Source: a virus (taxonomy: Duplodnaviria > Caudoviricetes). Taken from it: DNA of 49,096 nt. The translations under genes and the position numbers were made by a program. How positions within the stretch are numbered: position 1 is the stretch's first letter; each line of letters opens with the position of its first letter. The notes under the pieces are model-generated. The model was not told the origin of the DNA. It did not search any database and saw only the letters and a program-made list of their open reading frames with translations. Below are positions 1-48,503 of the stretch, in pieces. The stretch is from positions 1-49,096 of IMG/VR virus record IMGVR_UViG_3300005573_000128; one strand, written 5' to 3'.

Positions 1-235
1 AAGTGGTGGATTCCAATTTACTTTTGAAGATGAAAACAGACAAAATTGCTAAAATCGCTCATACCTAAATTTTTAAGATAAAGGTTGTCTCTTTGATATC
101 GGAAATAACGCCGTGAATTCCGCCAGTGGTTACTACCTTAAAATAAAGAGAGAAAAGATAAGGGGGGGCTTTCAGCAATTTGGGGTTTTTATTTAAGAAA
201 GCATTAAAAGTTTTAAAAAATAAAAAGGGAAAAGA

Positions 236-301
236 ATGTTAATTATATTGTTAATTATATTTATATTTTTGCTTTATTTTAAAAATTATTTAATACTTTA
301 A
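236..301 (+). CDS. possible 21-aa hydrophobic micropeptide MLIILLIIFIFLLYFKNYLIL
   Basis: Read by hand. AAGGGA upstream and context similar to 45284-45346; may instead be AT-rich promoter DNA. Confidence 0.3.
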   Translation: MLIILLIIFIFLLYFKNYLIL

Positions 302-321
302 AACTTTAAAAAGGAGGTAAA

Positions 322-480
322 ATGTTTTTATTGATAAAAACACAGACTGGAAAAATAATTTTAGAGTGTTTTGAAACGGATACACAGATTTTAGATTATT
401 TAAATTATGTGGATGAAAGAAAAGTGAAAGCATTTAAAATTCTTCCTGACAATGCTAAAGATAAAGATTTTGAGATTTGA
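322..480 (+). CDS. hypothetical 52-aa protein (not in ORF track)
   Basis: AAGGAGGT RBS at 311-318; MFLLIKTQTGK...DFEI*. Confidence 0.7.
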   Translation: MFLLIKTQTGKIILECFETDTQILDYLNYVDERKVKAFKILPDNAKDKDFEI

Positions 481-506
481 AATTTTAATTAACCTATTAA
501 AATAAG

Positions 507-525
507 TTCCGCGCTTAACGCGGAA
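507..525. promoter_or_regulatory. inverted GCGGAA pair TTCCGCG-CTTAA-CGCGGAA
   Basis: Perfect 7-bp inverted repeat just upstream of the RBS of the gene at 552. Confidence 0.5.
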
Positions 526-551
526 TAAAAAAAATAAAAAGGAGGTAAACT

Positions 552-956
552 ATGCTAAACAATGAATTAAACAATTTAAATAATGATAACTTAAATAATA
601 ATGATTTTATTGACTTATCACCTGATAATGAGACCCAAGACCAACCAAACTTTAGCGGATTACCCATTTATACACTGAAGGACTTTTTCGAAATGAACAA
701 AACAAAAGTAATAAAATTATATGTCTCATCATACAAAAGAAAGAAAGACTACACTTTTAATAGATATATCATATATCTTTTTGCTAGCTTAGAAAAAACG
801 CAGCCTGCGTTTATCATTAAAACATACTCGCAAAATATCGATAATTTCATTAGCAAGTATATTCTAAAAAACAAAATAAATAAACCATTCTCATTTAAAG
901 TGCAAGTTACTAACAACCGCGGTAAAGTTTCATTCAGAGTGTTGTTGAAAAAATAA
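552..956 (+). CDS. hypothetical protein with N/D-rich N-terminus
   Basis: GGAGGT RBS, 134-aa ORF, followed by a terminator. Confidence 0.75.
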   Translation: MLNNELNNLNNDNLNNNDFIDLSPDNETQDQPNFSGLPIYTLKDFFEMNKTKVIKLYVSSYKRKKDYTFNRYIIYLFASLEKTQPAFIIKTYSQNIDNFISKYILKNKINKPFSFKVQVTNNRGKVSFRVLLKK

Positions 957-974
957 TATTATTAAAACTAGGAT

Positions 975-1028
975 AGCCGGACAATACCAATTTTTTCTAA
1001 ATTTTTGGTATTGTCCGGCTTATTTTTA
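975..1028 (+). terminator. intrinsic terminator
   Basis: 16-bp perfect stem AGCCGGACAATACCAA/TTGGTATTGTCCGGCT followed by a T-rich tract. Confidence 0.75.
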
Positions 1029-1072
1029 TATATATAACGCATATATATAACCTAGCAGATATTTTTTTTTTA

Positions 1073-1160
1073 GGGGGAGGGGGGAGGGCTTTATAATCCC
1101 CGGCCAGACCAACCTAACCAAACCTATCCCGGCCAGACCAACTAGACCAACCAATACCCA
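1073..1160. repeat. G-tract (G5-A-G6-A-G3) followed by two copies of CCCGGCCAGACCAAC and short ACCAA repeats
   Basis: Direct repeats at 1098-1112 and 1128-1142. Confidence 0.75.
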
Positions 1161-1188
1161 ACATAGTTAATAATTAACTAATCCTTGT

Positions 1189-1560
1189 TTGTTATTCCGC
1201 GTTTAAGGGTAAAAGGCAGTGATCTCACTTAAAAGTCCATAAAATACCCTTATTTTGCTTTAAAAGGCTTATAGTAAAGAGATTTTTTCAAGGTAAGGTA
1301 GAACATTACCCCTCTAAAGATCGCCTTTTATAAAGCCAAATAAAAGGGAGTAGTATTTGTTATTCCGCGTTTTAGGGATTGTTATTTTATGTTTTGGTGG
1401 AAGTCAGTGATCTTAGCCAAAAGTCCATAAAATGCCTTTATTTTCTTTTAAAAGGCTTATAGAAAGGCGATTTTTGCTGGATAAGGGTAGAACATTACCC
1501 CTTCTGAGAACGCTTTTTATAGGGGAAAATAAGGGCTTGTTATTCCGCGTTTTAGGGATT
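1189..1560. repeat. tandem 168/180-bp units delimited by TTGTTATTCCGCGTTT(T/A)AGGG, each containing a ~100-bp imperfect palindrome
   Basis: Boundary motif at 1189, 1357 and 1537. Shared internal blocks CAGTGATCT, AAAAGTCCATAAAAT, TTTAAAAGGCTTATAG, GGTAGAACATTACCCCT. Confidence 0.9.
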
Positions 1561-1588
1561 TGACAAAAGGGCTTTTTAGGACTATATT
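1560..1588 (+). promoter_or_regulatory. sigma70-like promoter
   Basis: TTGACA-17 bp-TATATT, with GGAC immediately before the -10 box. Confidence 0.75.
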
Positions 1589-1595
1589 ATATAGT

Positions 1596-1817
1596 ATGCG
1601 TAAAATAACAATAACAAATAAAGGTTTAACAATAACTTTTTCATTTTCAAAGGAAGAGATAAAGAGTTTGCTTTCACATACAATTGGTTATTCACCTTCA
1701 AATGAAGAGTTAAACAAAATATTTCAGTTATTAGCCAAGCATTTAGCCAATTGTGGATGTGATAAATGTTTTTCTGCTGGAATGGATATTGTGTTAAGGT
1801 ATTTGAAATTAAAATGA
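1596..1817 (+). CDS. hypothetical protein with CxCxxC motif, probably leaderless
   Basis: ATG 7 nt after the -10 box; the ORF-track TTG start at 1560 is the -35 box. Confidence 0.65.
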   Translation: MRKITITNKGLTITFSFSKEEIKSLLSHTIGYSPSNEELNKIFQLLAKHLANCGCDKCFSAGMDIVLRYLKLK

Positions 1818-1835
1818 TATTCCGCGTTAAGAGTT

Positions 1836-1904
1836 GGTTAGTCAGGGAAGGACGCCCCCGTAGGAAATTCCCTGACGACCCTGGACTGGCTTAGGCTGGT
1901 CCAG
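1836..1904 (+). ncRNA. putative structured RNA or leader with two GC-rich hairpins
   Basis: GTCAGGGAA/TTCCCTGAC stem and CTGGACTGGC-TTAG-GCTGGTCCAG stem in AT-rich context; family not recognised. Confidence 0.45.
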
Positions 1905-1924
1905 TAAATTTAATGGAGGTGAAT

Positions 1925-2089
1925 ATGAAGTGTTTAAATTGTGGAAAAGAAGTAGAAAAAATCATTGTAACTAATGAAGGTATTTTTTGCGAAAACTGTA
2001 TTGAAAATGAACCAGATTATTATGAGATTTACTATGAGACTGATGAATTTCGTGAAATTCCAATTGAAGAAGAGGAGGAAAAAGAATGA
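1925..2089 (+). CDS. small zinc-finger protein with acidic tail (54 aa, not in ORF track)
   Basis: GGAGGTG RBS; CLNC...CENC; ATGA overlap with next gene. Confidence 0.75.
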   Translation: MKCLNCGKEVEKIIVTNEGIFCENCIENEPDYYEIYYETDEFREIPIEEEEEKE

Positions 2090-2352
2090 GGAAATATTTA
2101 TTTAGTTTAATGCTTTTTATTATCTTTTCCGCGTTTTTGGTTTTAGATAATGATTTCTTTTATTTTTTACTTGTATTTAAGAAACTGGCTTTATTAGGAC
2201 TAGCTACACTTATGGCTACTGTTTTACGAAAAACCTTGTTTTGGTATATTGATTTTAGCTGGGAATTACAAAAGAATAATCCATTACCAGTGGCTATCTT
2301 TTTAGGACTTTGGTATTTAGCCTGTTTAATCTCTTTTGCTTTACTATTCTAA
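2086..2352 (+). CDS. putative holin (3 TM segments)
   Basis: 88 aa, three hydrophobic stretches, directly upstream of the lysin candidate. Confidence 0.55.
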   Translation: MRKYLFSLMLFIIFSAFLVLDNDFFYFLLVFKKLALLGLATLMATVLRKTLFWYIDFSWELQKNNPLPVAIFLGLWYLACLISFALLF

Positions 2353-2364
2353 AGGGGGACAGGT

Positions 2365-2910
2365 TTGCCCAGTCCTTATAGGTCTCTCCATTTTATCCTC
2401 CTTTTCCTGTCCCCCTTCCTTTTTGGAAGAGGGATAATACCTGAGGATTTATCTTTTATTTCCCCTTTTAAGCGTATTCTTTACGAAGATGATTTAATTA
2501 AAATGGCTAAGGAATTTAATTACGAGCCTTATTTAAAAGCAGTTGTTTTATCTATCTTTTTTGAAGAACAAGGAAAAGGAAATAAGATAATCTTCTGGAA
2601 TAATAATTCATCTGGTTTCCATCCTTGGAAAAAAAGATTTCCTTGGGGCTGGGCAAAAAGATACTGGATTATTCTACCAGAAGGTTACACTATGCTTAAA
2701 GAAGGAAAAACAAAAAAAAGATGCCCTTATTTTTCTTTCCGCTTTTTAGCTGATTGCTTTCAAATTATGTGTGTTATTGTATACGACAGAGGTATCTTGG
2801 ATTATCGGACTTATCTTCTGAGATGGGCAGGAAAAGAATGGTATAATTCCCAATCAGTTTATAATTTTCAAGAAAGAATCAAAAAATTTTATTATTTATT
2901 AGGACAATGA
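2365..2910 (+). CDS. putative endolysin (glucosaminidase/lysozyme-like) with signal-peptide-like N-terminus
   Basis: E-Q-G-K-G...NNxxG, YFSF...D and YxxRWA pattern reminiscent of GH73-like hydrolases; TTG start uncertain. Confidence 0.45.
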   Translation: MPSPYRSLHFILLFLSPFLFGRGIIPEDLSFISPFKRILYEDDLIKMAKEFNYEPYLKAVVLSIFFEEQGKGNKIIFWNNNSSGFHPWKKRFPWGWAKRYWIILPEGYTMLKEGKTKKRCPYFSFRFLADCFQIMCVIVYDRGILDYRTYLLRWAGKEWYNSQSVYNFQERIKKFYYLLGQ

Positions 2911-3068
2911 TAATAGCAATTTGCCCTATTTGTGGAAAACCTATTTATTACGAAGAAGAAAAAGAATTTATTGAATGCCTTGATTTTAAAGGCTTTATTC
3001 ATAAAAATTGTTCAGAAGAAATTATTATTAAAACTCCTGATTGTAAAGATGGAAAATGTAATTTATAA
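2907..3068 (+). CDS. small Cys-rich zinc-binding protein (53 aa, not in ORF track)
   Basis: MIIAICPICGK...HKNC...CKDGKCNL*; ATGA overlap upstream and TAATG overlap downstream. Confidence 0.7.
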   Translation: MIIAICPICGKPIYYEEEKEFIECLDFKGFIHKNCSEEIIIKTPDCKDGKCNL

Positions 3069-3862
3069 TGGCTCTATCGTCTAATCTGGAAAGGACATCA
3101 GGTTTTCAACCTGAAGGTGAGGGTTCAAATCCCTCTAGAGCCATTTGTAAGCTTTATCTTGGTGATTGTTTAGAAATTATGAAACAATTACCAGATAAAG
3201 CCTTTGATTTAATACTTACTGACCCACCTTATCAGATTAGAGTAAAAAGTAAAATTGAACTTCATGGAAGAAAAGCTTTTTATCACAATTATGAAGAATT
3301 TATTAAATTAAATAGTGTTGATATTAAAGAGCTTTATAAAAAAATTTATCCTGAATTTGATAGACTTTTAAAAGAAACAGGTTCAGTATTAATGTTTGTG
3401 AGAAATGAATATATTACTTATGCGGTAGAAGAAGGGCAGAAAAATAATTTAGATTTAAAATGTGTTATTTATTGGCATAAAACAAATCCTCCTCCACAAG
3501 TAAGAAAGAAAAACTATCTTTCCGCTGTAGAAACTATTATTTGGCAAGCTAGAAGCGGAAAAAGTAAATTCACTTTTAATTTTAAACTCCAAAAAGAAAT
3601 GCTTAATTTTATATCTATGCCTATATGCGGAGGAAAAGAAAGAACTATACACCCTACCCAAAAACCATTAAAACTAATTGAGCATTTATTAGAAATTCAT
3701 AGTAATCCAGGCGATTTTGTATTAGACCCTTTTTTAGGCTCTGGAACAACAGCTGTAGCCTGTATTAAACTCAAAAGAAATATTATCGGAATAGAAATTG
3801 AGCCTAAATATTTCGAAATTGCCCAAAAAAGAATTAAAGAAGTCCAAAAGACTTTATTATAA
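3068..3862 (+). CDS. DNA N6-A/N4-C methyltransferase, beta class
   Basis: GDCLE, TDPPY (motif IV), HPTQKP, DPFLGSGTT (motif I). Confidence 0.92.
   Translation: MALSSNLERTSGFQPEGEGSNPSRAICKLYLGDCLEIMKQLPDKAFDLILTDPPYQIRVKSKIELHGRKAFYHNYEEFIKLNSVDIKELYKKIYPEFDRLLKETGSVLMFVRNEYITYAVEEGQKNNLDLKCVIYWHKTNPPPQVRKKNYLSAVETIIWQARSGKSKFTFNFKLQKEMLNFISMPICGGKERTIHPTQKPLKLIEHLLEIHSNPGDFVLDPFLGSGTTAVACIKLKRNIIGIEIEPKYFEIAQKRIKEVQKTLL
3070..3143 (+). tRNA. tRNA-Glu (anticodon TTC), CCA not encoded
   Basis: Acceptor GGCTCTA/TAGAGCC; anticodon arm TCAGG-TTTTCAA-CCTGA; T arm GAGGG-TTCAAAT-CCCTC. Confidence 0.9.
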
Positions 3863-3863
3863 A

Positions 3864-4303
3864 GCGAGACAGGCGAGACAAAGCGAGACAACACTGTCTC
3901 GCTGTAAGTCTTTAAAAATCAAGCACTTTCAAACAAGCGAGACACTATTATTATTTTTATTTTATTATTATACCGGTAATATATTATTATATAATACCGG
4001 GATAATATTACCCGGGAAAAATTTTTCCCGGGAAATACCCGGGAAAAATATACCCGGGTATTATTTTCTGGGAATAAAAGCAAGGCTTACGCCTTGCTTT
4101 TAAAATACTAAGACTCTAATAAAGAGTAAAATAAAAATAAATATAAAAATAATTTCTTTTTTTCTTTTTTTCTTTATTGACCTTTCTTTTTTTCTTTTTT
4201 TCTTTAAAAGAATATTTTATTTTGTCTCGCCCTGTTCATAAGTGCTTAAAAATCAAAATGTTAGAGCGAGACAGCATTGTCTCGCCTTGTCTCGCCTGTC
4301 TTG
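3864..4303. other. probable replication origin: mirror-symmetric GCGAGACA iteron arrays around CCCGGG repeats and an A/T tract
   Basis: Ten GCGAGACA/TGTCTCGC units (one degenerate); non-coding; upstream of the helicase operon. Confidence 0.7.
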
Positions 4304-4316
4304 TTAATTAAAAAAT

Positions 4317-4345
4317 TTGACAATAAGCCATTTTTGGACTATGTT
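4317..4345 (+). promoter_or_regulatory. sigma70-like promoter
   Basis: TTGACA-17 bp-TATGTT, with TTTTTGGAC before the -10 box. Confidence 0.7.
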
Positions 4346-4354
4346 AATATATAT

Positions 4355-4897
4355 ATGAAACCCAAAAAGGGGGAACTAATGAAAGAAAAAAATAAAGAAA
4401 TAAAAAAATTGAGTGAATTTGTAAATTTAGCTTGGGAAGTATATTCAAGTCTAAAAAATGACAATGAAAAGTATTTTCTAAAGGCAATTGAAAGAGCAGA
4501 TAAACTTTTTGATTTAAAAATTTCTCGGCATTATGACCGCAATTTTATTTTGAAACAAGAATATCTGTTTATAAAATTTTCTTATGATATCCATTGTTGC
4601 TTACTTTACATTTCCCCTTACCGCATTGATATGGAACTCTGTCTATTTTGGGCAAGGTTTATTTGGGTCTTTACTAAAATCGTATCCAATAAAACCTTGA
4701 AAGACCTAATGGAAATGGAATTTGTAAAAGAGATTAGCGAAGATTTTGTAAATGCTTGTAAAAAAGGAGACCTGGATACAATGAAAAAATATTTAGACTA
4801 TGGTTATAATCTTGATTTTGCTATTAAAAAAGCGTTAAAAGCCACTAAAAATAAAAAAATAATTAAATTTTTAAAATCTTATATCTCGGAAGAATAA
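4355..4897 (+). CDS. hypothetical protein with C-terminal ankyrin-like repeat
   Basis: C-terminus EISEDFVNACKKGDLDTMKKYLDYG resembles the N-termini of the ankyrin ORFs at 40861 and 42332; start is 4355 or 4379. Confidence 0.6.
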   Translation: MKPKKGELMKEKNKEIKKLSEFVNLAWEVYSSLKNDNEKYFLKAIERADKLFDLKISRHYDRNFILKQEYLFIKFSYDIHCCLLYISPYRIDMELCLFWARFIWVFTKIVSNKTLKDLMEMEFVKEISEDFVNACKKGDLDTMKKYLDYGYNLDFAIKKALKATKNKKIIKFLKSYISEE

Positions 4898-4899
4898 TC

Positions 4900-5409
4900 A
4901 TGAAAATCCTTTATTTCCCTAAAAATAATGCTTTTTTATTTGTAGACCTTAAAAGTGAAATATCAATTTTAGTGGAAGATTTTACTTTTAAGTTTGAGAA
5001 TATTGTTGCCAAAGTATCTTTTACCTTCCCCAATAATTTTACACTTTTAGAAAGTAAAAAGTTTTTTGTTTATTCGTGTTATTTAGCAGGTAATAATATT
5101 CCGCCTAACTGGCTATTAGAAATCAAGGAAGATTATGGTAGCTTAGAAGCAAAAAAAGAATTTATAAAAATTGAACTTCAAAATCTTATTAAAAAATACT
5201 TTGAACCTTACAAAACATTTTCTTTTATTATTACTTTTTCCCCTAAAAACAAATTTTATAAGATTAGTAGTCTTATAAGCAAACTTTCAAATTTTTATCT
5301 TTCTAAAGATGTTATTAACGAAATTTTAAATTATATTTCAAAAGTTATTTTTAGGAATGAATCAAAAATTAAACTTGGGAGGTTTTATGTTTCAAATAAA
5401 AATTTATAA
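4900..5409 (+). CDS. hypothetical protein
   Basis: 169-aa ORF within the operon. Confidence 0.65.
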   Translation: MKILYFPKNNAFLFVDLKSEISILVEDFTFKFENIVAKVSFTFPNNFTLLESKKFFVYSCYLAGNNIPPNWLLEIKEDYGSLEAKKEFIKIELQNLIKKYFEPYKTFSFIITFSPKNKFYKISSLISKLSNFYLSKDVINEILNYISKVIFRNESKIKLGRFYVSNKNL

Positions 5410-6649
5410 AGAAAATAATAAAATTTTCGTTAATTTAGAAAAAGAACTTGGTCTCTTTTTCACTTTCTCTAATTTCCGCATCTCCCGAATGGAATTGAAT
5501 GCTTTTATTACGATAGAAGCAAGGGAAAATGGTTCTACACTTCAAACACGCTATATGCGTGGCTCTCTTTATTCCCAATCTTTTAAAACAAACTTTATTA
5601 AAGAAATTGCCGATTTATGTATATCTCGTATTGAAATTAAAAAAGAACGCTTAACTACTATTGCGGAAGAAATTTTTTCTAAAGTTATTACAACTTACCG
5701 AGAATTAGATGCTTTAGTCAACGAAGAAGAAGAAGTTGATTTAAATAGAACAATCCAATATCTTTATTATCCATTCATAATAGAAAAAGTCCCTAATCTT
5801 ATCTATGGAAAAGGTGGAGTAGGAAAATCTACTTTTGCTATCTATGTAGGAATTAAATTGACAGAATATGGTAATGGCTTATATTTAGACTATGAAGCGG
5901 AAAAAGATATTTGGCTTCAAAGGGTAAAGAAGATAAGATTTTCCAATAATATCCAAACGCCTTATAAACTTTTTTATCGTCGTGCTTATGCTCCTTTATA
6001 TGAAATTGTTGATTTTCTAAAAGAAGAAATTGAAGAAAAAAATATAAGATTTATAATCATAGATAGTCTTGGAAAAGCATGCCATGGCTTAAATCTTATT
6101 GAAGCGGAAAGTGCCTCTACATTCTTTAATGCTTTGGATGAATTAAAAACAACTTCTCTTTTAATATCCCATATTGCGAAAGATGATACTGGAACTCCTT
6201 ATGGTTCAGTTTTCTTTTACAATTTTGCGAGAAATATTTTTGAAGTAGATAAATTTACCGATATTACAAAAGATATTCTTTATCTAACTTTTTATAACAC
6301 GAAAAATAATTATTCTAAACTTGCTTCACCACAATTTTATTCCGTCAATTTTGCGGATAATAAAATTGAAATATCCCAATTATCTTCATTACCAAATGAA
6401 CTTCGTTATGGATTAGATTTAATAACTCAAATTACAATGCTTTTAAAACAGAATGGAGCGATGAGGACAAAAGATATTGCCAAAGATTTAGATGTTTCAA
6501 TTGATACAATTAGAAAGACTATTAATCGGCATAAAGAACTTTTCGTGAAGATAGAAGATAAATGGGATTTGAGAGAAAATTATCAACCTTATGATGATAT
6601 TGATTTGGAAAAATTTGATGAAAATAATAATGATGAAACAGATATTTAA
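5387..6649 (+). CDS. RecA-fold AAA helicase (RepA/AAA_25-like) with C-terminal winged HTH
   Basis: Walker A GKGGVGKST, LYLDYE, Walker B IIIDSL, LISH, YGSVFFYNFAR; GGGAGG RBS favours ATG at 5387. Confidence 0.85.
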   Translation: MFQIKIYKENNKIFVNLEKELGLFFTFSNFRISRMELNAFITIEARENGSTLQTRYMRGSLYSQSFKTNFIKEIADLCISRIEIKKERLTTIAEEIFSKVITTYRELDALVNEEEEVDLNRTIQYLYYPFIIEKVPNLIYGKGGVGKSTFAIYVGIKLTEYGNGLYLDYEAEKDIWLQRVKKIRFSNNIQTPYKLFYRRAYAPLYEIVDFLKEEIEEKNIRFIIIDSLGKACHGLNLIEAESASTFFNALDELKTTSLLISHIAKDDTGTPYGSVFFYNFARNIFEVDKFTDITKDILYLTFYNTKNNYSKLASPQFYSVNFADNKIEISQLSSLPNELRYGLDLITQITMLLKQNGAMRTKDIAKDLDVSIDTIRKTINRHKELFVKIEDKWDLRENYQPYDDIDLEKFDENNNDETDI

Positions 6650-6653
6650 CCTA

Positions 6654-6681
6654 TTGACTTTTTTTAAAAAAAGATTAGAAT
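6654..6681 (+). promoter_or_regulatory. sigma70-like promoter, probably giving a leaderless mRNA
   Basis: TTGACT-16 bp-TAGAAT, with ATG 6 nt downstream. Confidence 0.55.
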
Positions 6682-6687
6682 ATTAGT

Positions 6688-7530
6688 ATGAGAGTAGAAA
6701 AGACAAAAAAAATCTTTGAGGTTGAAAATACAAAAAAGATAAATTATTTAATTCGTTTTTCCGATTTAAAGGGGATGGATATCTTTAGAAAAGAATTAGA
6801 AAACTTAATCGCGGAATTACAATTAGATAAATTCTTTATTATTAACAAAGAATATACCGAAGATACTGCTCTTTTTGATTTTGATAATTTAGCAAATGAA
6901 GAAAATTGCGAAGATATTATTATGACTTTTATTCAAAAAGCAAAAGAAAAAGCGGAAAAATTTGAGGCTATTGGTATTTTATATGCTGAAATTGAAGAAC
7001 TTAAAGAGAAATTCAATTCTTTGTTAAAAATCCTTTTAGAGAAAAAAATCTTGAAAAAAGAAAATTATTCAGATTTACTTTTTACTTTTCCGTTTGTAAA
7101 GCTTCCTAATTGGATAATTTCTGGAATTGCTTCATTTTTGTTAGGTTTATTTTTTGGTCTTTTTATTTCTCCAAAACCAGAAATTGGCGAAATCTATGTT
7201 TATAAAACAGATACTCTTTATGTTCAGCAATATGTTCGTGACACAATTTATTTAAAACAAACAAGAACCTATTTTGAGACAACTTATGTTTATCAAGAAA
7301 AAATAAAAAGAGATACATTTGTGAATGTGAAAGTGGAAAAAATGAAAGAATTTGTTAAACAACCAGAGAAACTAATAAATTTAGGTGCTTATATCCAAAA
7401 TGATTTTCCGAAAAAAGATTTATCTGGTGGTTTATATGCGAAACTTAATCTAAAATCGTTAAAGTTAGAAGGCGGAATAAAATATCATAAAAATTTTAAA
7501 CCATTTATAACGCTTAGATTTGAAAAATGA
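6688..7530 (+). CDS. membrane protein with central TM segment, DT-repeat stalk and beta-rich C-terminus; possibly spanin-like
   Basis: TM WIISGIASFLLGLFFGLFI; DTLYV, RDTIY and RDTFV repeats. Confidence 0.5.
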   Translation: MRVEKTKKIFEVENTKKINYLIRFSDLKGMDIFRKELENLIAELQLDKFFIINKEYTEDTALFDFDNLANEENCEDIIMTFIQKAKEKAEKFEAIGILYAEIEELKEKFNSLLKILLEKKILKKENYSDLLFTFPFVKLPNWIISGIASFLLGLFFGLFISPKPEIGEIYVYKTDTLYVQQYVRDTIYLKQTRTYFETTYVYQEKIKRDTFVNVKVEKMKEFVKQPEKLINLGAYIQNDFPKKDLSGGLYAKLNLKSLKLEGGIKYHKNFKPFITLRFEK

Positions 7531-10011: not shown

Positions 10012-10015
10012 ATAA
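9980..10015 (+). CDS. possible 11-aa basic micropeptide MARKKKKRGRK
   Basis: GGAGGTG RBS at 9970-9976; overlaps the portal 3' end in another frame. Confidence 0.4.
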   Translation: MARKKKKRGRK

Positions 10016-40864: not shown

Positions 40865-41121
40865 GAGAAATTGATAAGGAGTTTTTGGAAGATTGTAAAG
40901 CGGGTGAAGCTTTAGAATACATTATGGAACTTGTTAAAAATGGAGCGGATGTGAATGCTGTTGAGAATAAGGATAAAGAATTGGTTAAATATCTTTTAGA
41001 AAACGGGGCGAATGTTGATTACCAAAATTTTTGGGGTGAAACTGCTTTGATACTTGCCTGTAAAGGCGGAATGACTGAAATTGTAGAATTATTAATTCCT
41101 AAATTTGAGGAGAAAAAATAA
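40861..41121 (+). CDS. ankyrin repeat protein
   Basis: NGADVNA, NGANVD, GETALILAC. Confidence 0.85.
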   Translation: MREIDKEFLEDCKAGEALEYIMELVKNGADVNAVENKDKELVKYLLENGANVDYQNFWGETALILACKGGMTEIVELLIPKFEEKK

Positions 41122-41128
41122 AAAAATA

Positions 41129-41215
41129 TGGGATGGAGCAGTTTATTCTTTAACAATCAAACCTTCCTCAGTTTCACCTTTAAAATATAATTTGAAACGC
41201 ATCTGCTCCATCCCA
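41129..41215. ncRNA. 13-bp inverted repeat enclosing a 61-nt loop; possible small RNA or micro-cassette
   Basis: TGGGATGGAGCAG / CTGCTCCATCCCA; the loop is a 19-codon minus-strand ORF. Confidence 0.45.
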
Positions 41216-41243
41216 AAAATATGTAATTAAAAAAGGAGGGAAA

Positions 41244-41612
41244 ATGAAAAACAAAGGTTTTATAATTGAAGATATAAATGGAAAAATCGACATTAAACTT
41301 AAATTTCTTGATGGTTTTATTGATATTACTTCCTGGAATCTTACTTTTAATGGTATTCCGATTAGAAAACTTCAATTTTCTCTTTATGAAAAATTATGCT
41401 TAATGTTATTCGAAAAGGCGGAAAAAATTCTAACAAAAGAAAAACTTGAAGCTTTAAGAGAATGTTTAATTTGGGAAATTTTAGGGCGTGCGACAATAAC
41501 ATCTTATTCTTTTGATAAAGTTATTTTCCGAAGCAAAGATTTTAAAATCGCAATCACTTATCATAAAGAAAAACCAGAATATTGGATGGAGGATGAAGAT
41601 GCCAAGAAATAA
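41244..41612 (+). CDS. hypothetical protein
   Basis: AGGAGG RBS. Confidence 0.7.
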   Translation: MKNKGFIIEDINGKIDIKLKFLDGFIDITSWNLTFNGIPIRKLQFSLYEKLCLMLFEKAEKILTKEKLEALRECLIWEILGRATITSYSFDKVIFRSKDFKIAITYHKEKPEYWMEDEDAKK

Positions 41613-41817
41613 AGAGAATTATAAAATACAATGTGCTTATTGTTATCAAGTTCTTCCGCCTGAATATTGTTTAGTGGTAAAGAAATGGGATATTGAAGAA
41701 GGTAATTATGATTATGATGATTATTCTTTTTGTTCCGAAAAATGCTTAGAAGGGTTTTTAAAGAAAAATTTATTTAAATTATTAGGAAAAGAATTAAGAA
41801 TTGAAAAGGAGGAATAA
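41599..41817 (+). CDS. small zinc-finger (TRASH/MYM-like) protein
   Basis: CAYC...FCSEKC; GGAGG RBS favours start at 41599. Confidence 0.65.
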   Translation: MPRNKENYKIQCAYCYQVLPPEYCLVVKKWDIEEGNYDYDDYSFCSEKCLEGFLKKNLFKLLGKELRIEKEE

Positions 41818-42335
41818 TGAAAAGAAAAATAACAGCAAAAGAAATTATTGTATTATTTTTTATTTTAATTGGTTTCATCTTTTCATTTCGTGTATTGATT
41901 GAAAATTTTCATTTAGAAAAACAGCTTCAAAAATACCAAAACGCGGAAAAACATTCTCTTATTATTCCGCTTCAATATTATTTTAATAATTATTTAGATA
42001 CCATCTATTCTATTACTTCTTATCTTACGGGCTTGGATATAAAATATCTTTACGCAGTATCAGAAGTAGAAAGCAACCATAATCCAATAGTAGTAGGCGA
42101 CAAAGGAAGAAGCGTAGGTTTATTTCAAATCCAAAGCCAAGAATGGAAAGAATGCTTAAAACATCCCCTTATCAATGCTCTTACATTCGCAATCATTCTA
42201 AAAGGATTAGAAAAACGCTATGGACATATTACAATTGCTTTGTCTGTTTATAATGGAGGACCTAGTAATCCTAATCTAAAATATACTCAAAAAGTTTTAA
42301 AAATATTAGAAAAATTTGAAAAGGGGGAAAAATGA
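41817..42335 (+). CDS. membrane-anchored lytic transglycosylase (SLT family)
   Basis: N-terminal TM; EVES, GLFQI, YNGG. Confidence 0.85.
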   Translation: MKRKITAKEIIVLFFILIGFIFSFRVLIENFHLEKQLQKYQNAEKHSLIIPLQYYFNNYLDTIYSITSYLTGLDIKYLYAVSEVESNHNPIVVGDKGRSVGLFQIQSQEWKECLKHPLINALTFAIILKGLEKRYGHITIALSVYNGGPSNPNLKYTQKVLKILEKFEKGEK

Positions 42336-42723
42336 GAGATATTGATAAAGAGTTATTAAATGCTTGTTGGCTTGGTGATTTTAAAAAAGTTAAACAACTA
42401 TTAGAAAAAGGAGCAGATGTGAATGCCAGAGATGAAGACGGTTGGACTGCTCTAATAAAAGCTTCTTACAATGGTTATGAAGGAATTGCTGAATTACTGA
42501 TAGAATATGGAGCTGATGTGAATGCTCAAAATAAATACGGTGATACTGCTTTAATATATGCTTGTTGGAATGGTCATAAAGAAGTGGCTGAATTACTATT
42601 AGAGAAAGAGGTGCTGATGTGAATGCCAGGAATAAAGATGGTAATACTGCTTTAACGATTGCTTGGGAAAGAGATCATAAAGAAATAGTTGAACTCCTAA
42701 AATCCTATGGAGCAAAATTTTAA
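42332..42723 (+). pseudogene. ankyrin repeat gene with a frameshift near 42608
   Basis: ORF stops at 42622, but the ankyrin repeat continues in another frame at 42610-42723 (GADVNARNKDGNTAL...GAKF). Confidence 0.75.
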
Positions 42724-42734
42724 AAGGAGGTAAA

Positions 42735-43049
42735 ATGAGAGATGAAAGAGATTATGCTTTATTTTGGTATGCTATTTGGGCTTATAATTTTCTTAGAGAT
42801 TATACAAAAGAAGAAATAAAAGCATTAGTTTTAGAGATTGGTGACCTTACTCAAGCTTTTCCGCTTCAAGCCCTTCCTTTAAGGAAATGGAAACTGAAAT
42901 TTAAGAAACTGGCTGATAAAGAATTAACCAGTTATCAATTACTTGCTCTTCTAATGGTTGGAATGGATATTTTAGTAGATGGTGATATATCAAAAAATCA
43001 TCCTGATTTTCAATATTTAAAACTTGCTAAAAAAGTAGTTGAGCTGTAA
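42735..43049 (+). CDS. hypothetical protein
   Basis: AGGAGGT RBS. Confidence 0.7.
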   Translation: MRDERDYALFWYAIWAYNFLRDYTKEEIKALVLEIGDLTQAFPLQALPLRKWKLKFKKLADKELTSYQLLALLMVGMDILVDGDISKNHPDFQYLKLAKKVVEL

Positions 43050-43052
43050 AAA

Positions 43053-43976
43053 ATGATTGAGCCTTATTTTGAGATGGATTTAAATTATATTCCGCGTTAT
43101 AAGAAAATAATTTATGAGAATGAGAAGATGATTGTCTACGAGGATGGAAGTATATATCACAAGGATAACAGGCTGAATAATTTGACTAATAAAGAATGGA
43201 TGAAGTTTACGAAAAGTTGGTTTATTTTAGAAACCAGGAAAAAACGAGATATGGATATTTTACAACATCCTGCTACTTTTCCTGATGAATTAGCCTTAGA
43301 ATTTATCAAATTCTTTACAAAAGAAGGACAAATGGTTTTAGACCCAATGGTTGGTGTAGGTTCAACTTTGGTTGCTTGTGTGGAAACGGGAAGAAATGGA
43401 ATAGGAATAGATTTAAATGAAAAATACGCTAAGATTGCTAAAAAGAGACTGCTTAAATATAATACTAATCCCTTATGGCCAGATATTGCTAAAAAAGTTC
43501 ATATTACATATTATGTTGCTGATGCTTTTGATATTGATAAATTAAATCTTCCGCCTATTGATTATTGTATTACTTCTCCGCCTTATTGGGATGTGCTTAG
43601 AGAAAAAGGATTGGAAAAACAAAAAAAGCGGAAAGAAATGGGTTTGGATACCTATTATTCCGATGACCCAAGAGATTTAGGTAATATATCTGACTACAAT
43701 GAGTTTTTAGATAAATTAACTGAGATTTTTAAAAAAGTATATGATGTTCTTAAACCAGGGGTTTATATGACGGTGATTGTTAAAAACATCAAGAAAAAAG
43801 AAAAGAAATATCCTTTAGCTTGGGATTTAGCTTCTAAACTTTCCACTTTTTTTGCTTTAAAAGACGAAAAAATTTGGTGTTTAAACGAAGAAAAGCTAAG
43901 ACCTTATGGCTATAAATATGCCTGGTCCAGCAATACAATACATCATTATTGTTTAAATTTTAGAAAAGAAACCTAA
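43053..43976 (+). CDS. DNA N4-C/N6-A methyltransferase with motif I before motif IV
   Basis: HPATFP, DPMVGVG, TSPPYW. Confidence 0.9.
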   Translation: MIEPYFEMDLNYIPRYKKIIYENEKMIVYEDGSIYHKDNRLNNLTNKEWMKFTKSWFILETRKKRDMDILQHPATFPDELALEFIKFFTKEGQMVLDPMVGVGSTLVACVETGRNGIGIDLNEKYAKIAKKRLLKYNTNPLWPDIAKKVHITYYVADAFDIDKLNLPPIDYCITSPPYWDVLREKGLEKQKKRKEMGLDTYYSDDPRDLGNISDYNEFLDKLTEIFKKVYDVLKPGVYMTVIVKNIKKKEKKYPLAWDLASKLSTFFALKDEKIWCLNEEKLRPYGYKYAWSSNTIHHYCLNFRKET

Positions 43977-43989
43977 AAAGGAGGAAAAC

Positions 43990-44310
43990 ATGGAAGAAAG
44001 AAAAGAAAACTTATCATTTGTAATATCAAAAGAAACGAAACAAGGGAAAATGACAATTGGTTATATTCCTGTTGATGAAATTCCGCCGAAAGCTCCAGTA
44101 GGAAGAAATCCCTTTTATATGGCTCTTTTAAGGAAATTCTTAGAAGATAAAAACACAAAGAAAGCGAAAATCTATTACGAAGGTATTCCACCTCGAAAGG
44201 TTGCTACTTTATTATTTTGCTCCTTAAAACATTTAAAGAAACAAAATCCCAATATAAAAATCAGCATCTACAAAAGAAACGGTGAAGTTTATATTGAAAA
44301 ATCGGAATAA
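43990..44310 (+). CDS. hypothetical basic protein
   Basis: AGGAGG RBS. Confidence 0.65.
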   Translation: MEERKENLSFVISKETKQGKMTIGYIPVDEIPPKAPVGRNPFYMALLRKFLEDKNTKKAKIYYEGIPPRKVATLLFCSLKHLKKQNPNIKISIYKRNGEVYIEKSE

Positions 44311-45065
44311 TGATAAACACAATAATTTGCGGTGATAGTGAAAAAGTCCTAAAAGAATTTCCTGATAACTGGGTTGATGCGGTTATTACTTCTCCACCTT
44401 TTAATCTTCACAGAGCTTACGATGTTTATAACGATGATGTAGAATGGGATAAATACTTTCAAAAATTGTTCGCTATTCTCAAAGAGTGTTTCCGCGTTTT
44501 AAAGGATGATGGAAGACTAATAATTGAAATTCAACCTGCTTTTTCTAAATATATGCCTACCCATCATATCGTTTCTAATTTTCTTTTAAACGAATTGAAA
44601 ATGCTTTTCTATACCGAAATTATATGGGACAGAACCTATTATAACGCAAGAATAACGCAATGGGGCTCTTTTTGTCTTCCTTCAATGCCTTATTTCCAAA
44701 ATACTTGTTCTTTTATTCTTGTTTATTCCAAGAAAGAAAGAAAGCATAAAGGGGAAAAAAAGAATGCCGATATCTCACCTTTAGAATTTAAAGAATGGAT
44801 AACAGGAAAATGGCAAATTACACCAGAAACTGATTTAGAAAAAAGATATAATCATCCTGCTCCTTTTCCAGAAGAACTTGTTTTCCGCCTTATAAAACTT
44901 TTCACTTTCAAAGGAGATATCATCTTAGACCCATTTTGCGGAATAGGAACTACTTGTATAGTCGCAAAAAAACTAGAAAGAAACTTTATCGGTATCGATA
45001 TTTCTCCTAATTACTGCGAAATAGCAAAAAAACGACTGAAACAACTAGACTACAAACTAATTTAA
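44310..45065 (+). CDS. DNA N4-C/N6-A methyltransferase, beta class
   Basis: TSPPF, HPAPFP, DPFCGIGTT. Confidence 0.9.
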   Translation: MINTIICGDSEKVLKEFPDNWVDAVITSPPFNLHRAYDVYNDDVEWDKYFQKLFAILKECFRVLKDDGRLIIEIQPAFSKYMPTHHIVSNFLLNELKMLFYTEIIWDRTYYNARITQWGSFCLPSMPYFQNTCSFILVYSKKERKHKGEKKNADISPLEFKEWITGKWQITPETDLEKRYNHPAPFPEELVFRLIKLFTFKGDIILDPFCGIGTTCIVAKKLERNFIGIDISPNYCEIAKKRLKQLDYKLI

Positions 45066-45074
45066 TTTAAAAGG

Positions 45075-45127
45075 ATAGGGCGTTCTAGGGATTAAATCAC
45101 CCTTTTTCCCTAGGACGCCCTATTTTT
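45075..45127 (+). terminator. intrinsic terminator
   Basis: 17-bp stem ATAGGGCGTTCTAGGGA/TCCCTAGGACGCCCTAT (one G-U pair) followed by a T tract. Confidence 0.7.
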
Positions 45128-45138
45128 ACCCCCTAAAT

Positions 45139-45235
45139 CCCCTTTATTTGGCTTTATAAAAGGCGATCTCCTAAGGGGTAGGGTTCTTACCTTACCCCCT
45201 AAGAGAACGCCTTTTATAAGCCAAAATAAAAGGGG
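45139..45235. repeat. ~97-bp imperfect palindrome; inverted copy of the 1247-1348 element
   Basis: 45143-45169 is the exact reverse complement of 1318-1344 (27 nt). Confidence 0.85.
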
Positions 45236-45283
45236 TTTTTGAGCAATTTTAAAAATATCTTTCAAAAATAAAGAGGAGAAAAA

Positions 45284-45346
45284 ATGGCGTTTATTATTTT
45301 AATAATTTTAATTTTATTATATCTTTATTCCGCTATAAAGTCTTAA
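45284..45346 (+). CDS. possible 20-aa hydrophobic micropeptide MAFIILIILILLYLYSAIKS
   Basis: GAGGAG RBS; similar to 236-301. Confidence 0.35.
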   Translation: MAFIILIILILLYLYSAIKS

Positions 45347-45369
45347 ACTTAAAGGCGGAATAAAGATAT
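45319..45369. promoter_or_regulatory. 15-bp inverted repeat built on TTCCGC/GCGGAA
   Basis: ATATCTTTATTCCGC...GCGGAATAAAGATAT just upstream of the RBS of the gene at 45392. Confidence 0.55.
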
Positions 45370-45391
45370 TTAACTTAAAAAGGAGGAAGCA

Positions 45392-46822
45392 ATGAAGAAA
45401 GGTAATTGGAGGATTTATTCCTCCAATAAAAATATTTTAAAATTCTATGAAGATTTGAAGGATTATTTTTCAATTTTCAGACACTATGTAAATTGGCGAT
45501 ATTTCAGCAGACAAGAGCTGAAAGATACTATTATCTTTTCAACAAGTCGTGTTGAATATAATTCCCAATTGTTTGAAAATTTTGAAATAACTTTAGATAA
45601 ACAATATCTATCATGTGATGCTGTCAGATACTTAAGTTCCTTTAATGGAGTTTATGAATTGGATTTTGGAGTAGATAAAGTAATTCGGATATTTGAAACT
45701 AATACCCAAAAATCCATCGGCTATTATATTCCCGCAATGAATACTTTTCTAGCTGGCAATTGGTTGTATTCCGATTTATGCTATGAAATCTATAAAACAT
45801 TTGCGGATGATTTGAAGAAACTTTTTAAGAAAATAGAGGTTAAGCCGATAGAAATTCTCTTAGGGATGGACCCAGAATTAGAGGTATGGCATCAAAATTC
45901 GTATGTTAAGGCAAACGAACTTTTGCCATTCTCTGGTCATCTAGGAACTGATGGAAGTGGTTGCCAAGTAGAGCTTAGACCGTCTCCCTCACCAAACGAA
46001 GACAAATTGGTTGAGAATATTAAAGATCTTTTAATAAGATTTCACAGGAGCTATCCAAATTACAATCTTCTTGTTTCTGGTGATAAATACCCTTTAGGCG
46101 CTCATATTCATTTTAATCTTCCAATGGATAGAAATTTTATATTGATTTTAGATGACTTCTTAGGACAATGGCTATTACCATTATCTGGAAAAGCGAGATC
46201 GCATTATAAACATTTATCTAATGTTGAAACCAAAATTTATGGTTTTGAATACAGAAGCCTACCCTCCGCAATCTTATTAACACCAGAAATTTTAACTACA
46301 GTTTTAAAGATTGCCAAAAGATTAGCTTTCGAATTTTATTTCGAGAATGGTGTGAGTGATTTTTCCGAATTAGAAATCCAAAGATTGGGATTAGAAAAAG
46401 AATATCAAATATTATTTGACTTTATCAAAAATTATTGGCAAATGAACAAAAATATCTTATACCAATGGGGAATAATTACAGAAGAAGAATTAGAAAGACA
46501 GTTTTCTATTGTTTTTAGAGACGATTGGCATCCTTGTATCTGCGATTATGTTTATAAATATCTTTTAAAAAAATTAAAAGAAATGAAATTCGAGGGGGAA
46601 ATTATAATATTCGGGCTAAAAGAAGACAGGGGAGAAGTAGTTTATGGGTTTGATAGTGCTTATTACAAAAGAATTCCAGACGATACTTTTAGTTTTAATC
46701 ACAATCATATCTATGGTTTACCTTATTCGTTAAGAATGAATTTAAACATTGAAAATGAAGCAGAAGTAAAAAGATTAGAAAAAGTTTTGGAAGAAATTAT
46801 TTTAGAAATTAAAAGGAGGTAA
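45392..46822 (+). CDS. COOH-NH2 ligase type 2 (phiEco32-like amidoligase)
   Basis: GMDPELE, GTDG...VELRPSP, GAHIHF, GFEYRSLPS. Confidence 0.85.
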   Translation: MKKGNWRIYSSNKNILKFYEDLKDYFSIFRHYVNWRYFSRQELKDTIIFSTSRVEYNSQLFENFEITLDKQYLSCDAVRYLSSFNGVYELDFGVDKVIRIFETNTQKSIGYYIPAMNTFLAGNWLYSDLCYEIYKTFADDLKKLFKKIEVKPIEILLGMDPELEVWHQNSYVKANELLPFSGHLGTDGSGCQVELRPSPSPNEDKLVENIKDLLIRFHRSYPNYNLLVSGDKYPLGAHIHFNLPMDRNFILILDDFLGQWLLPLSGKARSHYKHLSNVETKIYGFEYRSLPSAILLTPEILTTVLKIAKRLAFEFYFENGVSDFSELEIQRLGLEKEYQILFDFIKNYWQMNKNILYQWGIITEEELERQFSIVFRDDWHPCICDYVYKYLLKKLKEMKFEGEIIIFGLKEDRGEVVYGFDSAYYKRIPDDTFSFNHNHIYGLPYSLRMNLNIENEAEVKRLEKVLEEIILEIKRR

Positions 46823-46827
46823 AAACA

Positions 46828-47553
46828 ATGTGTGTAATAGCAATAAGTCATTCTGGGGAGAAATTCCCCAGAGAAACCTTGGAAAAAATGTTTGATGCGA
46901 ATCCACATGGGTGTGGGTTCGCATATGTTGAGGATGAAGTTGTAAAAGTCAAAAAAGGCTTTATGGATTTTAATGATTTCTTTCAAGCATATGAATTAAT
47001 TCCAAATGTGGTACATGCCATACATTTCAGATTTAAAACACACGGTGAAATATCTCAATCTTTAACGCATCCTTTTCCGCTTGATAAAATTATTCCTCCT
47101 GACCAAATAGAATTTGAGACTCAGTCAGCTTTTTTCCATAATGGAACGATAGAATACCATAAAACTTTACTGTATTCGATATTTCCAAATTTAACAAATG
47201 AAGAAAAAGAAATTATACTTAAATATCCAGATTTATCTGATACTTTGGTGATGGCGGTATATTTAAAAGTAGTTAAGAATCTTGATTTTCTTAAATTCTT
47301 TTCCTCTAAATTTGCTATTCTAACGCCAGATGGAATTATAAAGTTTGGAAATTTCGTTAAAGAAGGGAATTTCGAATATTCCAATGTTTCATGGCGTTCG
47401 AGAGTGATTTATTCAGATAAACCTTGTCCATATCGGAAACATCGAGATAAATGCCCAACAAAGAATTATCGAAATTGCCCTTATTTCGACACCAAATGCC
47501 CTTACAATAATACTACTTATACCAATTTTCAAAATGGTTGGTATGTTATCTAA
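46828..47553 (+). CDS. class II (Ntn) glutamine amidotransferase
   Basis: N-terminal MC, NPHGCG, HFRFKTHG, HPF, HNG, SDT. Confidence 0.9.
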   Translation: MCVIAISHSGEKFPRETLEKMFDANPHGCGFAYVEDEVVKVKKGFMDFNDFFQAYELIPNVVHAIHFRFKTHGEISQSLTHPFPLDKIIPPDQIEFETQSAFFHNGTIEYHKTLLYSIFPNLTNEEKEIILKYPDLSDTLVMAVYLKVVKNLDFLKFFSSKFAILTPDGIIKFGNFVKEGNFEYSNVSWRSRVIYSDKPCPYRKHRDKCPTKNYRNCPYFDTKCPYNNTTYTNFQNGWYVI

Positions 47554-47582
47554 AAATTTAATTTTTTTAAAGGAGGTAAAAA

Positions 47583-48053
47583 ATGGAGAAAATAATTGAA
47601 ACTATTAGAAAATACGGTCTCCAATTTTTCGATGGAGACCAGAAGAAGAAGGCATTAAAAGGCTTGCTAAATGAGCTGAATAAACTTTTAAAAATAGATG
47701 TAAAACTCATTTTTAACTTAAAGGATAGATTGATGTATCAAATTACTGGCGGAGGAAGATATCATCCGACTAATCGGACAATTTATCTATACAAATTATC
47801 ATTTATGACTTTCTTACACGAATTAGCACATGTTTTTACAGTATCAGAAGCGGAAGCCCGAAAGATATCGCATTTTCTCTTCAAAGCTTCATTGCCTGAA
47901 AAATATGAAAACGCCAGAAGAAAGAAATTATTCTTCCATTTTCTATCTGATGAAGAGATTAAGGAAGGCGAAATTATATTAAAGAGATATTTGAATGAGC
48001 TGTTAAAATTTGAAGATAATTACGAAAAAGAAAAATTCTTTTCCGCCTTTTAG
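47583..48053 (+). CDS. zincin-like metallopeptidase
   Basis: GRYHP...TIYL...FLHELAH. Confidence 0.7.
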   Translation: MEKIIETIRKYGLQFFDGDQKKKALKGLLNELNKLLKIDVKLIFNLKDRLMYQITGGGRYHPTNRTIYLYKLSFMTFLHELAHVFTVSEAEARKISHFLFKASLPEKYENARRKKLFFHFLSDEEIKEGEIILKRYLNELLKFEDNYEKEKFFSAF

Positions 48054-48068
48054 GCGGAAGGAGGAAAG

Positions 48069-48503
48069 ATGGAAAAATTTAATTTCAGTTTTAAAATCAA
48101 TGGTGATGAGATTTATTTTTGTTATAAAAATTTCAAAACCAAAATAAATTCTACAGAATTTGAAAGCTTTCTGAGAAGCAATGGTCTTACAATCATTCAT
48201 TTTCAAAACCTTCACGCGGAAACAATTTTAAACAATACAAAATACCAGTTTATATTTAACGAACAGATTAAAAGTAAAAAGGGGAAATTCTTAATATTTA
48301 AATCTATTCCTGAATTTGAAAGAGGGATGACACCTTGTGTCAAAAGAACTACAGTTGTTTTTTTACCCCACCAAAAAGCAAGAATCACAACTGATTGGAT
48401 AAAATTAAAAATAAATTCAGATACTCTAGAAATTGAGGAATTTTACCATAAAAAACACATATATATATGGAATGGAGAAAATCTAATAATGGAGGAAAAA
48501 TGA
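48069..48503 (+). CDS. hypothetical protein
   Basis: GGAGG RBS, preceded by a TTCCGCCT/AGGCGGAA hairpin. Confidence 0.7.
   Translation: MEKFNFSFKINGDEIYFCYKNFKTKINSTEFESFLRSNGLTIIHFQNLHAETILNNTKYQFIFNEQIKSKKGKFLIFKSIPEFERGMTPCVKRTTVVFLPHQKARITTDWIKLKINSDTLEIEEFYHKKHIYIWNGENLIMEEK

Follow-up and report, generated by a model that had tools for sequence, protein, structure and literature searches.

Phage P1 carries 50 Chi sites over both strands, Chi being its most frequent octamer, and requires RecBCD for circularisation (bioRxiv 2021.07.08.451572); LLS, MD8 and 71 other lambdoid genomes that lack a recombination module are for the most part rich in Chi, with MD8 retaining a NinG homolog (PMC12315714), and in such phages Chi is concentrated between the origin and the packaging site (PMC3784561). 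This study concerns a word of comparable character, the hexamer GCGGAA (TTCCGC on the complementary strand), in the virus record IMGVR_UViG_3300005573_000128, a stretch of 49,096 bp and 28.6% GC that is called the window at its full length and on which every called gene lies on the + strand. As in P1, LLS and the Pseudomonas phage MD8, a short non-palindromic G-rich word is the most over-represented one and codon usage offers no explanation; as in P1, the word stands on both strands with an orientation bias, and as in MD8, a NinG-like gene is kept and no match to RecT or ERF is present. The phage differs from the Chi-rich phages in that its word is GCGGAA rather than GCTGGTGG or GCTGGCGC, is about five times denser, has soft flanks on both sides and is arranged in two orientation arcs instead of terminal clusters, and in being a podovirus-like phage of hot-spring origin.

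Bacteria with known Chi-like words are few: five are named in PMC8022716, which quotes AGCGG for B. subtilis and GAAGCGG for S. aureus, and a Pseudomonas word is given in PMC12315714. Almost all of the known words come from mesophilic model organisms. The two Firmicute AddAB words resemble the phage word in their GCGG core and in the R-A-N 5' flank, which precedes the core in 73 of the 124 phage sites (AGCGG is present in 47 and GAAGCGG in 20); they differ in that the phage sites can dispense with the A before GCGG (77 of 124 are without it) and require the AA after the core. Both GCTGGTGG and GCGCGTG are absent from the window (0 each), AGCGG outside the word occurs at expectation, and GCGGAA is identical with none of these described Chi-like words.

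Enrichment of GCGGAA

The + strand of the window holds 84 GCGGAA and 40 TTCCGC, a total of 124 copies or one per ~396 bp, spanning position 118 to the last copy at 48216-48221, which is close to the hand count of an earlier note on this DNA (about 80 and 40, or one per 400 bp). Expected numbers for both strands are 5.2, 8.7, 19.0 and 55.1 under Markov models of order 0, 1, 2 and 3, respectively, and GCGGAA is the top hexamer at all four orders, in agreement with the note's estimate that base composition predicts far fewer copies. At order 4 the word is not among the top hexamers because it is absorbed by its own pentamers.

The excess was compared with 300 shuffles that preserve both the proteins and the codon usage of the 46 called open reading frames (ORFs). 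GCGGAA occurs 79 times in these ORFs vs. 11.3 ± 3.1 in the shuffles (maximum 20) and TTCCGC 32 times vs. 3.0 ± 1.6 (maximum 9), so that 111 coding copies stand against ~14 in synonymous sequence; the earlier note had staked its case on the enrichment persisting in shuffles of this kind, as it does. The word fills 111 of the 308 places that the proteins permit (36%), compared with 1-10% for 14 comparison hexamers and 17% for AAGCGG, which overlaps it, representing a very strong DNA-level constraint within coding sequence. All six strand/frame classes are occupied (43, 27 and 9; 5, 18 and 9), as expected from the note's argument that the word is not a peptide motif, and 43 of 70 Ala-Glu pairs are spelled GCG GAA. 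A peptide or codon artefact is excluded by the synonymous shuffles, the six-frame use and the matched nulls. The note had additionally held that the rare codons GCG, CGG and CCG occur mostly within the word; a sizeable part of them does lie wholly inside it (43 of 87, 9 of 23 and 18 of 48, or 38-49%), and "mostly" was an overstatement. Part of the copies initially scored as non-coding fall in small ORFs.

With the word masked, AGCGG is found 14 times vs. 13.9 expected and GCGG 43 times vs. 36. The single-mismatch neighbours of GCGGAA total 257 vs. 238 expected, those raised being TCGGAA (34 vs. 12.8) and GGGGAA (33 vs. 16.5).

Conservation in a relative

Queries with the capsid, terminase and methyltransferases retrieved no relatives from viral_contigs, capsid homologs in the protein sets were all at most 31% identical and bore no host label, and metagenome contigs gave only the locus L087 and two copies of the phage itself, making L087 (89.8% identity over ~11 kb) the sole relative found. 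Of 31 window sites in the aligned region, two lie in deletions; among the other 29, 22 are kept and 7 are lost. L087 has four gained sites and three more in unaligned DNA, for a total of 29 in 12.0 kb, the same density as in the window. These gains and losses involve several positions of the word and both transitions and transversions. Synonymous third-position G/C bases differ between the two genomes at 4 of 28 positions inside the word and at 194 of 411 outside (Fisher p=0.0006). The rarity of change at the word's synonymous G/C bases argues, from this one relative, that the DNA word itself is under selection. The check in related phages that the earlier note had proposed came out, for this one relative, in favour of enrichment, and its description of a non-palindromic mark at the DNA level fits a word that is selected and conserved in L087.

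Extended context of the site

The copies share a context of ~18 bp, C(-7) Y W W R A(-2) N GCGGAA W A(+7) N N A(+10), where the first G of the word is position 0; both strands show preferences for C at -7, W at -5 and -4, and A at -2, +7 and +10. In a codon- and frame-matched null for 109 coding sites, these preferences remained for C at -7 (42 vs. 20.8), A at -2 (78 vs. 54), A at +7 (70 vs. 50) and A at +10 (66 vs. 47). The flanking bases also separate used from unused opportunities (all p<0.001), with A at -2 in 79 of 111 used and 68 of 197 unused places. Together, the hard core and the soft flanks are more suggestive of a context-reading protein than of a site for a restriction-type enzyme. 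A hairpin or pseudo-palindrome hidden in the 5' flank was considered and rejected, as the positions show no covariation (34 vs. 35.4, 42 vs. 44.4 and 39 vs. 35.2).

Orientation and spacing of the copies

The orientation of the word divides the genome into two arcs, and several groups of copies stand in distinctive settings, as follows:

5663..41423: arc B, GCGGAA on the + strand in 75 of 93 copies
41654..49096, continuing over the join into 1..5479: arc A, GCGGAA on the - strand in 22 of 31 copies
3853..4315: candidate replication origin, non-coding, inside the support range of the left orientation switch
507..525: back-to-back pair TTCCGC-N7-GCGGAA, immediately 5' of the ribosome-binding site of ORF 552-956
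1189..1560, - strand: three repeat-unit copies whose extended context is the strongest, lying upstream of a near-consensus sigma-70-type promoter at 1560
45319..45369: back-to-back pair within a 23-nt inverted repeat, ahead of ORF 45392
48041..48059: back-to-back pair TTCCGC-N7-GCGGAA that resembles a terminator on the - strand and overlaps the ribosome-binding site of ORF 48069

None of 400 order permutations gave an orientation split as extreme as that observed (75 of 93 vs. 9 of 31 on the + strand; raw p=0.0025), and the switches fall near the candidate origin and at ~41.5 kb although all genes are on one strand. When the strand/frame classes were fixed and both breakpoints left free, the polarity had p=0.047; with the left breakpoint fixed at the candidate origin, an element noticed after the orientation switch had been seen, p was 0.003 and the right breakpoint fell at ~42 kb, and a simple split between origin and antipode gave p=0.043. 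Among 620 words tested, GCGGAA has the sharpest arc-specific strand switch, with the breakpoints fitted on GCGGAA itself. Judged by eye, G/C and A/T skew at four-fold sites showed no change between the arcs. The element at 3853-4315 contains 83-nt inverted arms, GCGAGAC repeats in both directions, an AT-rich stretch and four CCCGGG palindromes in its core; it precedes a near-consensus promoter and a helicase-like gene, is kept in L087 at 3137-3555, and is on these features a putative replication origin.

The earlier note had proposed a test of spacing regularity, and genome-wide the copies proved irregularly spaced (coefficient of variation 0.96 vs. 0.99 for random placement, p=0.39); helical phasing between neighbouring copies was likewise not detected (Rayleigh p 0.2-0.56). 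At short range, few same-direction copies lie less than 70 bp apart (3 vs. 8.8 expected, p=0.005). Back-to-back pairs number 8, more than the 3.1 expected (p=0.008), and three of them stand just ahead of ribosome-binding sites. The soft flanks, the orientation switch and the scarcity of close same-direction pairs are all features that the note did not contain.

The copies that the note had placed at the repeat boundaries (1195, 1363 and 1543) do lie in repeats of ~170-190 bp. L087 has one repeat unit instead of two, and the promoter-proximal copy is deleted there. A general association with promoters was rejected, since the promoters at 4317 and 36736 have no copy nearby and the copy beside 1560 is lost in L087. 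As a separate observation, elements of ~45 nt starting with TTACCCC occur in the 170-190 bp repeats (1208-1560) and also in a 50-nt inverted repeat at 45135-45238, and TTCCGC follows each of them within ~40-140 bp.

Restriction to one lineage among the loci compared

Within the loci compared, saturation with GCGGAA is confined to this lineage. Among 198 other loci of at least 8 kb, none came near an order-2 ratio of 6-7 with a comparable count, and none of 76 viral loci picked by extended patterns was saturated with the word (seven of these 76 also fit the 198-locus panel if long enough); the pattern scans of viral_contigs returned 5, 7 and 69 loci with the same outcome. Three Aquificae viruses with distantly related terminases are not saturated (15 vs. 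10.7, 8 vs. 7.1 and 12 vs. 7.6), nor is a stretch of a hot-spring Calditerrivibrio plasmid (10 vs. 4.5). Ten copies of the extended pattern CNWWAANGCGGAAWA are present in the window; of 73 genomes searched with it, none had more than 8. Among the papers listed by the literature searches, none, judged by title or opening of the abstract, treated GCGGAA as a genome motif of prokaryotes or phages; supplements and REBASE, where a methyltransferase or Chi word so spelled may be recorded, lay outside their scope.

Two other loci showed word excesses of their own. L135, a viral locus of 11.6 kb and 25% GC, has 18 copies of the palindrome CAGCTG vs. 0.9 expected (order 2, both strands), the strongest excess of the panel, and L304 (BK013346.1), an Aquificae Joseph's Coat Spring virus, has 85 TAGAAG vs. 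28.5, a 3-fold excess accompanied by several other words in excess.

Interpretation as a possible Chi-like signal

The polarity of the word and the biology of the phage make a Chi-like signal for a host AddAB/RecBCD-type enzyme the best single explanation, which is put forward here tentatively. A host helicase-nuclease of this type would enter at a free double-stranded end of the phage DNA and, after no more than a few hundred bases, encounter GCGGAA from the 3' side of the word; there it would cease degradation and instead pass the phage DNA to the host RecA. Free ends, whether virion ends, terminase cuts or broken forks, would arise mostly around 40-43 kb; with ends in this region, most copies in either arc would be oriented against an enzyme moving from about 41-42 kb toward the candidate origin. 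Profile searches of the phage proteins gave no match to RecT, ERF or a tyrosine integrase and recognised no DNA polymerase or primase, and a phage so equipped would be expected to rely on host recombination for circularisation or concatemers. The minority-orientation copies would act on ends formed at other places, as has been proposed for P1, and the scarcity of close same-direction copies may reflect the small gain from a further site immediately after one.

Although GCGGAA resembles Chi in the features examined, it matches no described Chi word and is not classed as Chi; it would likely be a new spelling of a Chi-type signal. The earlier note, which listed Chi only among the analogues, suggested an undescribed system; the present reading reduces this to a new word for a described kind of signal. 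If the word is Chi-like, the phage genome would supply a ready candidate Chi word for a hot-spring lineage, and word-saturated phages could be used to read out the Chi words of hosts and to match phages to hosts.

Several points weigh against this reading. Enrichment and polarity in the host genome are the usual computational criterion for Chi, and no host was found among the 75 genomes screened (two of them with a shorter pattern); these genomes represent the phyla reached via one methyltransferase scan and are unlikely hosts, so the result is no evidence of absence. That scan of species genomes gave 80 methyltransferase loci, none of them, by title, from a low-GC thermophilic bacterium. The copies show no simple terminal clustering, and with one GCGGAA per 0.4 kb the word is about five times denser than Chi is in P1 or LLS, where a site occurs every 1.9 kb. 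The 5' flanks are strong (C at -7, A at -2), whereas E. coli Chi is reported to depend on its 3' flank, with an effect of A or G at 3' positions 4-7 (PMC5041463), and the same source states that non-enteric "Chi" words have not all been shown to be hotspots (section 26). The B. subtilis word AGCGG was rejected as the operative signal, having no excess outside GCGGAA (14 vs. 13.9). The phage may also have recombination genes of its own, to judge from OB-fold-like, Cas4-like and weak Sak4/UvsX matches. The orientation switch is real but modest and partly due to protein composition (p=0.047), copies in the less common orientation also exceed expectation, 4-fold in arc A (6 vs. 1.5) and 8-fold in arc B (19 vs. 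2.3), and the arcs are unequal at ~37 and ~12 kb. No end-like feature was seen at 41.1-41.8 kb, and the excess of back-to-back pairs is not predicted by Chi.

Methyltransferases and avoided palindromes

The phage encodes three N6/N4 DNA methyltransferases, and no C5 methyltransferase was found among its proteins:

3068..3862, +: methyltransferase 1, CcrM/DpnIIB-like
43053..43976, +: methyltransferase 2
44310..45065, +: methyltransferase 3

Six 4-bp palindromes are avoided in the window, with observed vs. expected counts of 1 vs. 89 (TGCA), 0 vs. 29 (ACGT), 1 vs. 48 (GTAC), 3 vs. 46 (GCGC), 5 vs. 40 (GGCC) and 11 vs. 107 (GATC). The avoidance is near-total in both the window and L087, where GANTC and CATG are also partly avoided. 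This pattern likely reflects a host with many type II restriction systems and could help in identifying that host, and it provides an ordinary job for the phage methyltransferases.

Alternative explanations

Instead of a host enzyme, a phage-encoded sequence-specific protein might recognise the word in double-stranded DNA and treat it as a self tag for organising, protecting, replicating, packaging or pulling in the genome; we consider this possible, though doubtful. The genome-coating or protective protein proposed in the earlier note is a reader of this kind. The two-sided context of ~18 bp, which survives the codon and frame control, resembles a duplex footprint, both orientations are enriched everywhere, and the scarcity of close same-direction copies along with the common back-to-back pairs would fit steric limits, three such pairs standing just ahead of ribosome-binding sites. 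Candidate readers include the 4985-aa protein, which is likely ejected, the Myb-like protein (38474), the helix-turn-helix protein (40296) and any one of ~30 unassigned ORFs, but no result ties a candidate to the word, and the atlas matches available for two of them are leads only. The lack of helical phasing and the promoter results at 4317, 36736 and 1560 also count against such a reader. The limitation of the word to this lineage among the compared loci speaks for a phage protein, yet it is also expected of a host-specific signal if the panel lacks phages of the same host. In its fullest form, the idea is of a direction-sensitive, genome-wide self tag belonging to the phage, an ~18-bp site read by a phage protein independently of the host's Chi or uptake machinery, and this we regard as unlikely. 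If a phage protein does read the word, this would constitute a new means by which viral DNA is labelled as self.

The word could also be a DNA uptake sequence of the host, accumulated through biased uptake and recombination as in Pasteurellaceae prophages, which appears improbable. Uptake sequences form intergenic inverted pairs and show an even spacing at short range, and both are present in the phage. The Pasteurellaceae signal AAGTGCGGT shares with the phage word a GCGG core, soft AT-rich flanks, occurrence on both strands and at synonymous positions in genes, and intergenic inverted pairs; GCGG are the critical bases of the H. influenzae motif (PMC3458573), and temperate Pasteurellaceae phages accumulate host uptake sequences, whereas large, likely lytic phages are poor in them (PMC6776037). 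However, the flanking bases differ, the orientation switch is not predicted, variants with one mismatch scarcely exceed expectation (257 vs. 238), and accumulation requires a prophage stage for which no tyrosine integrase was found, with only ~435 bp of the 49,531-bp unit missing from the window. The earlier note had offered, as one of two readings, the site of a phage or host methyltransferase enriched through methylation-linked repair, a route modelled for HIP1, and on the present results this is quite improbable. Type IIG or BREX-type sites would accommodate a non-palindromic 6-mer whose fifth base is A, three N6/N4 methyltransferases are encoded, and those at 43053 and 44310 are possibly a pair for an asymmetric site, a host enzyme acting on one strand being the alternative. 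HIP1 and the alternate HIPs of cyanobacteria are likewise high-copy GC-rich words in coding DNA, in genomes encoding orphan methyltransferases, and HIP sites accompany cognate methyltransferases; these words are palindromes (PMC4390886), whereas GCGGAA is not. Moreover, soft flanks and polarity are unexpected of an enzyme site, the phage lacks a recognised C5 methyltransferase, the gains and losses in L087 follow no single mutational route, and palindrome avoidance is the usual context for phage methyltransferases. No comparable excess was seen at loci of at least 8 kb carrying relatives of methyltransferase 2 (80 prokaryotic and 58 viral loci) or methyltransferase 1 (80 viral loci), these relatives being 24-59% identical (prokaryotic 47-59%) and perhaps of different specificity. 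Finally, a replication-fork or translocase signal (a primase start, helicase reloading or a KOPS-like guide), oriented by bidirectional replication from 3.9-4.3 kb, is very improbable, even with the left switch near the candidate origin and p=0.043 for the origin/antipode split. A spacing of a few hundred bases per strand does lie within the range of Okazaki fragments; against this, known primase sites are mostly trinucleotides, no primase was recognised, no skew change separates the arcs and the less frequent orientation shows strong enrichment. KOPS have a much greater polarity, pointing almost one-sidedly toward the resolution site, and a guide of that type is rejected by majority directions of just 75/93 and 22/31 with the minority enriched 4-8-fold.

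Genome and gene content of the phage

In one metagenome contig the capsid region recurs after 49,531 bp and matches the window exactly, suggesting that the unit is probably ~49.5 kb with ~435 bp absent from the window. On this basis the record is probably near-complete; the CheckV completeness estimate for the window is 53%. Two hot-spring metagenome runs contain the tested stretch of the phage and are a possible source; no RNA dataset was among the runs listed. The genes bearing on the readings discussed above are:

5357..6649, +: AAA_25 ATPase with a C-terminal helix-turn-helix, putative RepA-like helicase
7939..13898, +: portal, capsid and adaptor genes with SU10-type profile matches
20034..34991, +: 4985-aa protein without a confident family, with the lowest GCGGAA density (1.6-1.7 per kb)
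34988..36714: large terminase split into two adjoining ORFs, an ATPase half and a nuclease half
36806..38502, +: two weak matches, to an OB-fold-like protein (Pfam E 0.017) and to a Cas4-like nuclease (NCBIfam E 0.01)
38474..38725, +: small Myb-like helix-turn-helix protein, candidate phage reader of the word
39507..39854, +: NinG/Rap-like junction endonuclease
40296..40598, +: HTH_17 protein with excisionase and small-terminase profile matches, candidate TerS, ~1 kb from the right orientation switch

The order of SU10-type portal, capsid and adaptor genes, then the 4985-aa gene and the split terminase, marks a podovirus-like tailed phage, and the near-consensus sigma-70-type promoters at 1560, 4317 and 36736 together with an SLT gene indicate a bacterial host. 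The phage is very isolated, the best capsid homolog outside its own cluster having 31% identity; the portal, helicase, nuclease and ligase have no match among known phages, and distant matches to known phages are those of the capsid (Arthrobacter phages), the terminase (including the three Aquificae viruses), a phosphoesterase and the SLT protein. The AAA_25 ATPase has weak Sak4 and UvsX profile matches, and the OB-fold-like and Cas4-like genes may form a partial recombination module. Although profile searches of the phage proteins revealed no partition genes, a plasmid-like prophage stage may exist. The 4985-aa protein, for which PDB, Pfam, PHROGs and NCBIfam gave no useful match, is likely an ejected, polyvalent virion protein, and it has an HNHP motif near residue 3118 that we take to be reminiscent of a JAB/RadC-like domain.

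Additional features were noted elsewhere in the genome. ORF 552-956 encodes a 134-aa protein with atlas look-alikes among phage single-strand-binding proteins, as a lead only. A very basic ORF of 67 aa at 10127-10330, between the portal and scaffold, has a weak PHROG virion-protein match and possibly encodes a DNA-condensing protein. At 45392-47553, a phiEco32-like COOH-NH2 ligase adjoins a probable class II glutamine amidotransferase (weak Pfam match). Two small ankyrin-repeat genes lie on either side of the SLT gene, at 40861-41121 and 42332-42699, and the repeat array of the second seems to extend beyond its called stop codon.

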